A stretch of DNA of 64,000 nucleotides from Escherichia coli (GTDB lineage: Bacteria; Pseudomonadota; Gammaproteobacteria; Enterobacterales; Enterobacteriaceae). The translations under genes and the position numbers were made by a program. This document shows positions 42,492 to 47,438 of this stretch, piece by piece (position 1 is the stretch's first letter; the number at the start of each line of letters is the position of its first letter). Where the stretch lies: assembly GCF_002854065.1 (NCBI RefSeq), contig NZ_CP024147.1. One strand, given 5' to 3'. The notes beneath the pieces are model-generated. The model was not told the origin of the DNA. It saw nothing but the letters and a program-made list of their open reading frames with translations, and did not search any database.

Positions 42492-43378
42492 TGGTTCGGC
42501 AAAATCTTCCAGAACGCCTCAATCAGCGGCTCATGCAGCCGCTTTTTCTGCGCACAAACGCCCAGTTCAAACGGCGTTTTTTCATCGCTGCGCTCTAAAA
42601 TCATCACGCGGTTACGCACCGGTTCGGGGCTGTTTTCCAGCACTACTTCCGGCAACAGCGCCACGCCACAGCCGAGCGCCACCATCGATACCATCGCTTC
42701 ATGCCCGCCAACCGTGGCGTAAATCATCGGGTTACTGATTTTGTTACGCCGAAACCACAGTTCAATGCGGCGGCGTACCGGCCCCTGATCGGCCATGATA
42801 AACGGCACCGTTGACCAGTCCGGCTTCTCTACCGACACCTGATTACGCACCGGGCAGGGCAGCGCGGGGGCAATCAGCACTACTGCCAGATTCTCCAGCA
42901 TCGAAAACGCCACTGCGCCGGGCAAGGTTTCCGGTTTACCCGCAATCGCCAGATCCGCTTCACCAGTGACCACCTTTTCCATCGCATCTGCCGCATCACC
43001 AGTAGTAAGTTTAATCTCCACCGACGGGTGTTCCGCGCGGAAGCGATCCAGAATCGGCGGCAGATGGCTGTAGGCAGCGGTCACCGAGCAGAAGATATGT
43101 AATTCGCCAGAGAGCGACGGCCCTTGCTGATCGATGGTGTGGCGCAACTGCTGATACTGCAACAGCGTTTGCTGGGCGAAAACGCGCAGCTCTTCGCCCG
43201 CTTCAGTCAGCGTCACCGTGCGGTTATCGCGCACAAACAGCGGCTGACCGAGATCTTCTTCCAGGCGCTGAATCTGCCGTGAGAGCGTGGACGGGCTAAC
43301 GTGCATCGCCCGCGCGCTGCGGCCAAAATGGCGGCTTTCCGCCAGATGCAGGAAGGTTTTCAGATCGCGTAAATCCAA
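42488..43378 (-). CDS. ilvY: LysR-family activator of ilvC
   Basis: LysR HTH; start placed at a TTG codon giving [45 protein letters not shown], the ORF track extends 28 codons upstream. Confidence 0.85.
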
Positions 43379-43401
43379 TGGCGCAGCCCTCAATGTTGAC
43401 G

Positions 43402-43416
43402 TTGCAGAAATTGCAA
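43402..43416. promoter_or_regulatory. Candidate IlvY operator (LysR-type inverted repeat) in the ilvY-ilvC divergent region
   Basis: Inverted repeat TTGCA-GAAAT-TGCAA between the ilvY and ilvC starts. Confidence 0.5.
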
Positions 43417-43527
43417 TGTGACGTTGTGAATATATCAATTTCCGCAATAAATTTCCTGTCATATAGTGAATTCAATCTCGCAAACGCGAACCGAACAATA
43501 AGAAGCACAACATCACGAGGAATCACC

Positions 43528-45003
43528 ATGGCTAACTACTTCAATACACTGAATCTGCGCCAGCAGCTGGCACAGCTGGGCAAATGTCGCTTTATGGGGC
43601 GCGATGAATTCGCCGATGGCGCGAGCTACCTTCAGGGTAAAAAAGTAGTCATCGTCGGCTGTGGCGCACAGGGTCTGAACCAGGGCCTGAACATGCGTGA
43701 TTCTGGTCTCGATATCTCCTACGCTCTGCGTAAAGAAGCGATTGCCGAGAAGCGCGCGTCCTGGCGTAAAGCGACCGAAAATGGTTTTAAAGTGGGTACT
43801 TACGAAGAACTGATCCCACAGGCGGATCTGGTGGTTAACCTGACGCCGGACAAGCAGCACTCTGATGTAGTGCGCACCGTACAGCCACTGATGAAAGACG
43901 GCGCGGCGCTGGGTTACTCGCACGGTTTCAACATCGTCGAAGTGGGCGAGCAGATCCGTAAAGATATCACCGTAGTCATGGTTGCGCCGAAATGCCCTGG
44001 CACCGAAGTACGTGAAGAGTACAAACGTGGATTCGGCGTACCGACGCTGATTGCTGTTCACCCTGAAAACGATCCGAAAGGCGAAGGTATGGCGATCGCT
44101 AAAGCATGGGCGGCGGCAACCGGTGGTCATCGTGCGGGCGTGCTGGAATCCTCTTTCGTTGCGGAAGTGAAATCTGACCTGATGGGCGAGCAAACCATTC
44201 TGTGCGGTATGTTGCAGGCCGGCTCTCTGCTGTGCTTCGACAAGCTGGTGGAAGAAGGCACCGATCCGGCATACGCAGAAAAACTGATTCAGTTCGGCTG
44301 GGAAACCATCACCGAAGCGCTGAAACAGGGCGGCATCACCCTGATGATGGACCGTCTCTCTAACCCGGCGAAACTGCGTGCTTACGCGCTGTCTGAACAG
44401 CTGAAAGAGATCATGGCACCGCTGTTCCAGAAACATATGGATGACATCATCTCCGGCGAATTCTCTTCCGGTATGATGGCGGACTGGGCCAACGATGATA
44501 AGAAACTGCTGACCTGGCGTGAAGAAACCGGCAAAACCGCGTTTGAAACCGCGCCGCAGTATGAAGGCAAAATCGGCGAGCAGGAGTACTTCGATAAAGG
44601 CGTACTGATGATCGCGATGGTGAAAGCGGGCGTTGAGCTGGCGTTTGAAACCATGGTTGATTCCGGCATCATCGAAGAATCTGCTTACTATGAATCACTG
44701 CACGAACTGCCGCTGATTGCCAACACCATCGCCCGTAAGCGTCTGTACGAAATGAACGTGGTTATCTCTGATACCGCCGAGTACGGTAACTATCTGTTCT
44801 CTTACGCTTGTGTGCCGTTGCTGAAACCGTTTATGGCAGAGCTGCAACCGGGCGACCTGGGTAAAGCTATTCCGGAAGGGGCGGTAGATAACGCGCAACT
44901 GCGTGATGTGAACGAAGCGATTCGCAGCCATGCGATTGAGCAGGTAGGTAAGAAACTGCGCGGCTATATGACAGATATGAAACGCATTGCTGTTGCGGGT
45001 TAA
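43528..45003 (+). CDS. ilvC: Ketol-acid reductoisomerase
   Basis: NADPH-binding motif GCGAQG; start placed at [19 protein letters not shown] (491 aa). Confidence 0.97.
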
Positions 45004-45019
45004 TAGCGATTCAGAGTTC

Positions 45020-45044
45020 AAGGCCTTCTCCTGGAGAAGGCCTT
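45020..45044. terminator. Bidirectional hairpin between convergent ilvC and ppiC
   Basis: Perfect stem AAGGCCTTCTCC TGGA GGAGAAGGCCTT located between the two stop codons. Confidence 0.65.
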
Positions 45045-45048
45045 ACTG

Positions 45049-45378
<330 letters not shown>

Positions 45379-45416
45379 TTATTTTCCCCTCCCGACTTTC
45401 ATTGAGCGATTTTCCT

Positions 45417-47438
45417 ATGCGTCTAAACCCCGGCCAACAACAAGCTGTCGAATTCGTTACCGGCCCCTGCCTGGTGCTGGCGGGCGCGGGTTCCGGTAAA
45501 ACTCGTGTGATCACCAATAAAATCGCCCATCTGATCCGCGGTTGCGGTTATCAGGCGCGACATATCGCGGCGGTGACCTTTACCAATAAGGCGGCGCGCG
45601 AGATGAAAGAGCGTGTCGGGCAGACGCTGGGTCGCAAAGAGGCGCGCGGGCTGATGATCTCCACTTTTCACACGCTGGGGTTGGATATCATCAAACGCGA
45701 GTATGCGGCGCTTGGGATGAAAGCGAACTTCTCGTTGTTTGACGATACCGATCAGCTTGCTTTGCTTAAAGAGTTGACCGAGGGGCTGATTGAAGATGAC
45801 AAAGTTCTCCTGCAACAACTGATTTCGACCATCTCTAACTGGAAGAATGATCTCAAAACACCGTCCCAGGCGGCAGCAAGTGCGATTGGCGAGCGGGACC
45901 GTATTTTTGCCCATTGTTATGGGCTGTATGATGCACACCTGAAAGCCTGTAACGTTCTCGACTTCGATGATCTGATTTTATTGCCGACGTTGCTGCTGCA
46001 ACGCAATGAAGAAGTCCGCGAGCGCTGGCAGAACAAAATTCGCTATCTGCTGGTGGATGAGTATCAGGACACCAACACCAGCCAGTATGAGCTGGTGAAA
46101 CTGCTGGTGGGCAGCCGCGCGCGCTTTACCGTGGTGGGCGATGACGACCAGTCGATCTACTCCTGGCGCGGCGCACGTCCACAAAACCTGGTGCTGCTGA
46201 GTCAGGATTTTCCGGCGCTGAAGGTGATTAAGCTTGAGCAGAACTACCGCTCTTCCGGACGTATTTTGAAAGCGGCGAACATCCTGATCGCCAATAATCC
46301 GCACGTCTTTGAAAAGCGTCTGTTCTCCGAACTGGGTTACGGCACAGAGCTAAAAGTTTTAAGCGCGAATAACGAGGAACATGAAGCCGAGCGCGTTACT
46401 GGCGAGCTGATCGCCCATCACTTCGTCAATAAAACGCAGTACAAAGATTACGCCATTCTTTATCGCGGTAACCATCAGTCGCGGGTGTTTGAAAAATTCC
46501 TGATGCAAAACCGCATCCCGTACAAAATTTCTGGTGGTACGTCGTTTTTCTCTCGTCCTGAAATCAAGGACTTGCTGGCTTATCTGCGCGTGCTGACTAA
46601 CCCGGACGATGACAGCGCATTTCTGCGTATCGTTAACACGCCGAAGCGAGAGATTGGCCCGGCGACGCTGAAAAAGTTGGGTGAATGGGCGATGACGCGC
46701 AATAAAAGCATGTTTACCGCCAGCTTTGATATGGGCCTGAGTCAGACGCTTAGCGGACGTGGTTATGAAGCATTGACCCGCTTCACTCACTGGTTGGCAG
46801 AAATCCAGCGCCTGGCGGAGCGGGAGCCGATTGCTGCGGTGCGTGATCTGATCCATGGCATGGATTATGAATCCTGGCTGTACGAAACATCGCCCAGCCC
46901 GAAAGCAGCCGAAATGCGCATGAAGAACGTCAACCAACTGTTTAGCTGGATGACGGAGATGCTGGAAGGCAGCGAACTGGATGAGCCGATGACGCTCACC
47001 CAGGTGGTGACGCGCTTTACTTTGCGCGACATGATGGAGCGTGGTGAGAGTGAAGAAGAGCTGGATCAGGTGCAACTGATGACTCTCCACGCGTCGAAAG
47101 GGCTGGAGTTTCCTTATGTCTACATGGTCGGTATGGAAGAAGGGTTTTTGCCGCACCAGAGCAGTATCGATGAAGATAATATCGATGAGGAGCGGCGGCT
47201 GGCCTATGTCGGCATTACCCGCGCCCAGAAGGAATTGACCTTTACGCTGTGTAAAGAACGCCGTCAGTACGGCGAACTGGTGCGCCCGGAGCCGAGCCGC
47301 TTTTTGCTGGAGCTGCCGCAGGATGATCTGATTTGGGAACAGGAGCGCAAAGTGGTCAGCGCCGAAGAACGGATGCAGAAAGGGCAAAGCCATCTGGCGA
47401 ATCTGAAAGCGATGATGGCGGCAAAACGAGGGAAATAA
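45417..47438 (+). CDS. rep: ATP-dependent DNA helicase Rep (SF1 UvrD-like)
   Basis: Walker A GAGSGKT; start placed at [29 protein letters not shown] (673 aa). Confidence 0.95.

Follow-up and report, generated by a model that had tools for sequence, protein, structure and literature searches.

The ilvY–ilvC divergent promoter region of Escherichia coli in a genome with a TTG start codon for ilvY

The ilvY–ilvC locus

The window, by which is meant the whole 64-kb stretch of Escherichia coli DNA analysed here, carries the gene order ilvD-ilvA, ilvY (minus strand), ilvC, ppiC and rep, and the synteny of ilvA, ilvY and ilvC is the same in K-12. The ilvY coding sequence, mapped from the RefSeq CDS of a 100% identical genome, occupies 42488..43378 on the minus strand and encodes a LysR-type regulator of 296 amino acids plus a stop codon. 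The ATG of ilvC is at 43528-43530. Between it and the ilvY TTG lies an intergenic region of 149 bp, 43379-43527, and the divergent region of that size described in the first-pass annotation is thus borne out. The 1301 bp around the ilvY-ilvC region have a 100% match in several complete E. coli genomes, and matches were found in 5425 of 5426 overall. The match to the window is contiguous in strains XJ34, XJ6-3, 100416 and CUWW06. Strain TR01 matches in two pieces and has a PemK/MazF-family toxin gene inserted in its ppiC-rep spacer (window 45331-45416), a place where ppiC runs almost directly into rep in the window; TR01 is otherwise 100% identical. When the window was compared with K-12 over 261 bp around the region, six positions were found to differ, none of them in the operator O2, in either promoter or in the ilvC leader.

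The product of the ilvY open reading frame matches PF00126 (HTH_1) with an E-value of 3.8e-23 over residues 31-90 of a 324-aa ORF, equivalent to residues 3-62 counted from the TTG, and PF03466 (LysR substrate-binding) with an E-value of 2.6e-37. Given these domains together with its orthology and synteny, the product is a LysR-type regulator and the orthologue of IlvY. Over the 295 codons following the initiator there are 16 nucleotide changes between the window and K-12, all of them synonymous, and no amino acid differences. The K-12 protein is 297 amino acids long while that of the window is 296 and lacks the C-terminal Lys, because the 58-bp ilvA-ilvY spacer of K-12, which contains a REP, is absent. 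The REP-like palindrome in the K-12 spacer is GCCTGATAGCGCTTCGCTTATCAGGCCTAC. In the window the lack of this spacer means that the stop codons of ilvA and ilvY overlap (GGTTAATGG, 42488-42491) and the two coding sequences share 4 nt. At least 1133 of the 5426 complete E. coli genomes have this REP-less junction. How convergent ilvA/ilvY transcription terminates in K-12 is reported to have been examined by Sameshima (1989), and termination must be arranged in another way in the REP-less window.

IlvY operators and promoters

At 43402-43416, TTGCAGAAATTGCAA consists of two 5-nt arms in perfect inverted repeat around 5 nt of spacer, TTGCA-GAAAT-TGCAA, just as the first-pass annotation had described it. 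In the 64-kb window the pattern TTGCANNNNNTGCAA is found a single time, compared with 0.18 occurrences expected from shuffled sequences, and about 4e-4 occurrences would be expected per 149 bp. The repeat is the core of a 21-bp dyad, ACGTTGCAGAAATTGCAATGT, at 43399..43419 (unstranded, centre 43409), which is the operator O1 for recognition and repression by IlvY. The O1 sequence given in PMC5002191, in its summary of Wek and Hatfield 1988, is ACgTTGCAAaaaTTGCAAtGT, and the window differs from it at one position in the spacer, with G at 43407 where K-12 has A. PMC5002191 also gives the IlvY consensus as TTGCA-N5-TGCAA, the same pattern as the window palindrome, and places the centre of O1 at +17 of ilvY and at -65 of ilvC, counted from their transcription starts. 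Within the core, T43403 and A43415 form the T-N11-A dyad of LysR-type sites.

Of the 73 Enterobacteriaceae species whose intergenic region is short, 69 have an exact O1 core, a conservation that speaks against chance more decisively than the shuffles do, and 64 of those 69 have it at a distance of 23 nt from the start codon of ilvY. Across species the arms stay invariant around a variable spacer, the 15-mer of the window being the commonest version (32 species). Position 43407 itself varies among species, so the G/A difference there is unlikely to matter, and we infer that G43407 would leave the mechanism unchanged. In the conservation profile 43397-43460 is near-invariant, and the ilvY leader between the Shine-Dalgarno (SD) sequence and O1 varies freely. 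The palindrome had been put forward tentatively as a candidate IlvY operator; it forms the core of O1 as published, and what was offered with caution is textbook fact. A lack of protection by IlvY had been named as the observation that would refute this. The summary in PMC5002191 points the other way, as it reports that Wek and Hatfield 1988 obtained a DNase I footprint covering O1 on the K-12 allele (A at 43407).

An alternative is that the repeat serves chiefly as a hairpin in the RNA, formed at the 5' end of the ilvY message and controlling stability or translation, or that it is there by chance. It does fall within the ilvY leader, spanning about +10 to +24, where a 5-bp stem is possible, and the predicted minimum-energy fold of the K-12 allele includes the hairpin. 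However, the predicted fold of the window allele does not use it, and the arms, invariant in 69 of the 73 species while the spacer varies, show no compensatory changes. Furthermore, the related half-palindrome O2, at a distance in helical phase (31 bp), is not part of the ilvY transcript, and the palindrome agrees with the IlvY consensus and with the published DNase I footprints summarised in PMC5002191. A hairpin or a chance repeat is therefore very unlikely, and the palindrome is treated below as part of O1.

The second operator, the activation site O2, is ATATATCAATTTCCGCAATAA at 43430..43450 (unstranded) with the core TATCA-ATTTC-CGCAA at 43433-43447 and its centre at 43440. This sequence matches in full the published O2, aTATatCaatttccGcaATAa, as taken from the summary of Wek and Hatfield 1988 in PMC5002191. 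The centres of O1 and O2, 43409 and 43440, are 31 bp apart, and an O2 core at +31 from O1 was found in 58 of the 69 species. In a repeat search O1 paired with O2 as an inverted repeat and with a middle repeat as a direct repeat at 22-bp spacing. This degenerate middle repeat, IR2 (TTGTG-AATAT-ATCAA, 43424..43438, unstranded), is centred at 43431; PMC5002191 puts IR2 at -43 of ilvC, between two repeats whose centres are at -65 and -34 relative to the ilvC start. A loose motif search allowing up to 2 mismatches gave 38 matches compared to 48 in shuffled sequences and missed both O2 (3 mismatches) and IR2 (4 mismatches), and such a search is therefore useless here.

The published offsets of O1 (-65) and O2/IR3 (-34) both place the probable ilvC transcription start at 43474 on the plus strand. 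Counting back from this start, the putative -10 of ilvC is TATAGT at 43462..43467 (plus strand), and at 17-bp spacing from it there is a putative weak -35, TTTCCG, at 43439..43444 (plus strand). The latter is overlapped by O2, in agreement with the overlap of O2 and the ilvC -35 stated in PMC5002191. Given the published ilvC start, the recognition site is near -65 and the activation site covers the -35 on the same helical face. The ilvY transcription start probably lies at 43422..43425 on the minus strand, with about 43425 (plus or minus a few nt) following from the position of the O1 centre at +17 in PMC5002191; the best -10-like hexamer for ilvY, TATATT, would favour about 43422 over 43425. 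A scan for sigma-70 consensus promoters and terminators between 43250 and 43650 returned no site, a result that carries little weight given that both promoters depart from the consensus or depend on an activator. A scan of 42000-46000 against Rfam at E<=1 gave no match. The picture in the first-pass annotation is incomplete rather than wrong, as O2, the degenerate third repeat, the geometry of the promoters and the GcvB site described below had gone unnoticed.

The ilvY start codon

On the minus strand the TTG at 43378..43376, corresponding to GTG in K-12, is followed by GAT TTA CGC GAT CTG AAA (D-L-R-D-L-K). The RefSeq/PGAP start of ilvY in a 100% identical genome is this TTG at 43378, and the GTG at which K-12 MG1655 b3773 starts is co-linear with it. 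An SD sequence, GAGGG (43387..43391, minus strand), is found 8 nt upstream of the TTG and is kept in K-12 despite flanking SNPs. Start regions were compared in 80 sequences, namely 80 Enterobacteriaceae species representatives minus L007 and L082, which could not be parsed, plus the window and K-12. The codon preceding DLRDLK was an initiator in 80/80 (GTG in 65, ATG in 13 and TTG in 2), the TTG pair being the window and Escherichia albertii, and an SD-like motif was present no more than 20 nt upstream of the start in all 80 sequences. The conserved N-terminus that had been invoked for this start is thus there, directly after an initiator in every sequence compared. The TRAINSPOTTER N-terminomics supplements, consulted for direct evidence on the IlvY N-terminus, hold no ilvY entry.

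An alternative is that translation begins at the upstream ATG 43462, giving a protein of 324 amino acids with a 28-residue N-terminal extension. The reading frame is open from this codon in both the window and K-12, and ATG is the preferred initiator. However, with the O1 centre at +17 the ilvY transcript would start at about 43425, and the ATG therefore falls outside it, some 37 nt upstream of the published transcription start. The codon (43462..43460) abuts or overlaps the putative ilvC -10, is without an SD sequence and is unused by RefSeq in both the window-identical genome and K-12. An ilvY protein begun there would have its HTH starting at residue 31, which is atypical for the LysR family. 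Amongst the 80 sequences, an in-frame stop occurs within 6 codons upstream of the start in 53 and before codon -28 in 2 more (55/80), thus the long ilvY ORF is absent from most relatives. The 28-codon 'extension' has 4 changed codons between the window and K-12, 3 of which would be non-synonymous (Fisher p ~0.004 against the 295-codon CDS), meaning three residue changes between two E. coli strains whose IlvY is otherwise identical. What is conserved in the DNA of the extension is the operator and promoter sequence rather than the codons, and the selective regime switches exactly at the TTG codon, with purifying selection on the coding side and free drift on the other. Initiation at the upstream ATG had been named beforehand as what would overturn the TTG start; both the comparison of the 80 sequences and the position of the transcript went against it, and we give this start almost no chance.

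A start at the in-frame TTG 43393..43391, five codons upstream in this allele, is equally far-fetched: although it is an allowed initiator within the probable ilvY transcript, it overlaps the SD sequence itself (TTGAGGG) and has none of its own, K-12 has TCG there, and most species lack it, many of them having a stop codon on the way from that point to the conserved start.

The TTG at 43378, as first proposed, is supported by RefSeq, the alignment to K-12, the initiator conserved in 80/80, the SD sequence and the selection boundary. The spacing of the SD sequence and the conservation of the initiator support a genuine non-ATG start for ilvY, and it is assumed that TTG here would work by the same mechanism as GTG in K-12.

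Two spurious long ORFs overlap the region. The start of the 324-codon ORF at 43462 (42488-43462, minus strand), considered above as a candidate for ilvY, is effectively refuted and the ORF is an artefact. On the other strand, the TTG allele creates a plus-strand ATG at 43378 within CAATGG, which overlaps the ilvY TTG by one base and opens a 50-codon in-frame extension of ilvC to give a 541-aa ORF (43378-45003, plus strand). Both upstream ATGs, 43378 on the plus strand and 43462 on the minus strand, lie upstream of the respective transcription starts.

Start-codon alleles in E. coli

Alleles of the ilvY start were surveyed in 5426 complete E. coli genomes using 36-mer queries in which each 28-nt seed was forced across the start codon. 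The window-type (TTG) allele was found in 3364 genomes (~62%) and the K-12-type (GTG) allele in 1848 (~34%) of this phylogenetically unbalanced sample, and TTG is therefore the commonest state in E. coli with the K-12 type a minority. Other alleles of the start region account for about 4% of the complete genomes, for example that of strain AST85, which likewise has GTG. The SNPs that separate the window and K-12 haplotypes are at 43378, 43379, 43382, 43383 and 43392, all within 15 bp, plus 43407 in the O1 spacer. Mosaic haplotypes occur, for example in strain 504237, and the window haplotype at the ilvY start is shared with E. albertii.

Folding predictions indicate that the SD sequence is more sequestered in the K-12 ilvY leader than in that of the window. 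This contrast in accessibility is a computational hint that the leader may compensate for the strength of the start codon. A more ambitious proposal is that the initiator is a balanced GTG/TTG polymorphism, with the linked SNPs compensating or the haplotypes setting the same or different IlvY dosage and ilvC inducibility. We regard this as doubtful, but if true then conclusions on IlvY expression drawn from K-12 would concern a minority allele. The modest addition made here is that the ilvY start codon met most often in sequenced E. coli genomes is TTG, not the GTG of K-12, together with its linkage to a tight group of SNPs in the leader. Otherwise the results are mostly a matter of annotation hygiene: the long ORF is an artefact, the annotated TTG is right and the palindrome is the defined operator O1.

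One locus, L003 (2471-2500), is titled E. coli SCPM-O-B-8794 and encodes an IlvY identical to that of the window. Its sequence upstream of ilvY resembles the Pseudocitrobacter- and Citrobacter-labelled loci L006 and L008 and was found in 0/5426 complete E. coli genomes, so it was left out as an E. coli allele. The contig is possibly mislabelled or contaminated, or it may be a recombinant.

The ilvC leader and GcvB

The 5' leader of ilvC is strongly conserved between 43476 and 43527, almost to the level of the operators. Work by Sharma et al. in 2011 is said to have described targets of the GcvB sRNA in amino-acid biosynthesis mRNAs. The ilvC leader contains CACAACAUCAC at 43506..43516 (plus strand), an 11-nt perfect complement to nt 67-77 of K-12 GcvB (R1 seed), directly upstream of the SD sequence, GAGGA at 43517-43521, which with the ATG at 43528-43530 makes up the ribosome binding and start region (43517..43530, plus strand). 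The predicted duplexes between the ilvC leader and GcvB were dominated by unrealistically long pairings, and only the exact 11-nt complement was used. ilvC is a verified GcvB target (PMC9299463), and 43506-43516 is the known GcvB site, the regulation itself being taken from the literature.

Between O1 and the middle repeat, GTGACGTTGTG at 43418-43428 repeats the GcvB target site in inverted orientation with 10/11 matches. In strain 103, O157:H7 WS4202 and E. albertii these positions read GTGATGTTGTG, which is the GcvB seed itself. The segment lies upstream of the ilvC start, and the complement of the segment (CACAACGUCAC) spans the point where the ilvY mRNA begins. The likeness may be a coincidence arising from conservation of the operator flank, or it may represent a partial GcvB-like site on ilvY.

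Proposed mechanism

Taken together, the region is the canonical divergent, overlapping ilvY-ilvC promoter region of E. coli, working as described for K-12, and we put the probability of this reading at about 0.95. The TTG start and the palindrome are correct and already known, and nothing here is new in kind. Our own part of the case consists of the identity to the K-12 region, the conservation of the initiator and the conservation and geometry of the operators; the footprints, the transcription starts and the inducer response come from the literature.

IlvY, translated from a non-ATG initiator, would form a LysR-type tetramer that binds cooperatively to the two tandem dyads O1 and O2. O1 would be the high-affinity recognition site at about +17 in the transcribed leader of ilvY and, since it lies inside that leader, its occupancy would repress ilvY with or without inducer. 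O2, centred three helical turns (31 bp) away, overlaps the weak ilvC -35. Binding of acetolactate or acetohydroxybutyrate to IlvY would change the conformation of the protein-DNA complex, which would allow RNA polymerase to bind and switch on ilvC; the induction given in the literature is roughly 100-fold. Divergent transcription would couple the ilvY and ilvC promoters through supercoiling, and the ilvC leader additionally carries the GcvB sRNA site beside its SD sequence. Summaries of the IlvY/ilvC mechanism are given in PMC6483228 and PMC5965847. Protection of the IlvY sites and inducer-dependent activation were reported for the K-12 allele by Wek and Hatfield 1988 and Rhee 1998, according to the accounts in PMC5002191 and PMC6483228, and IlvY was identified at the ilvC promoter by mass spectrometry in Reg-Seq (PMC7567609).

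Comparison with known systems

The closest comparison is with ilvYC of K-12 (Wek and Hatfield 1986, 1988; Rhee et al. 1998, 1999), which is the same locus with the same 149-bp spacing, the same O1 arms and the same IlvY protein, begun in both cases at a non-ATG codon. The differences are the GTG start of K-12 in place of TTG and four further SNPs in the ilvY leader, at 43379, 43382, 43383 and 43392, between the SD region and the start. The extended O1 dyad of K-12 is TTGCAA/TTGCAA whereas G at 43407 makes that of the window TTGCAG/TTGCAA. The ilvC leader resembles the GcvB targets in other amino-acid biosynthesis mRNAs (PMC9299463) in having a C/A-rich element directly upstream of the SD sequence, and no difference from them was seen.

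Amongst other LysR-type systems, the region is like oxyR-oxyS and cynR-cynT, the three-repeat regions placed in group two by PMC5002191. In each, a regulator and its target are divergent, with a conserved recognition dyad near -65 and two further sites at about -43 (degenerate) and about -34 (activation), and autorepression is combined with inducer-dependent activation. OxyR differs in the sequence and spacing of its half-sites, ATAG-N7-CTAT compared with TTGCA-N5-TGCAA for IlvY, and the inducers differ too.
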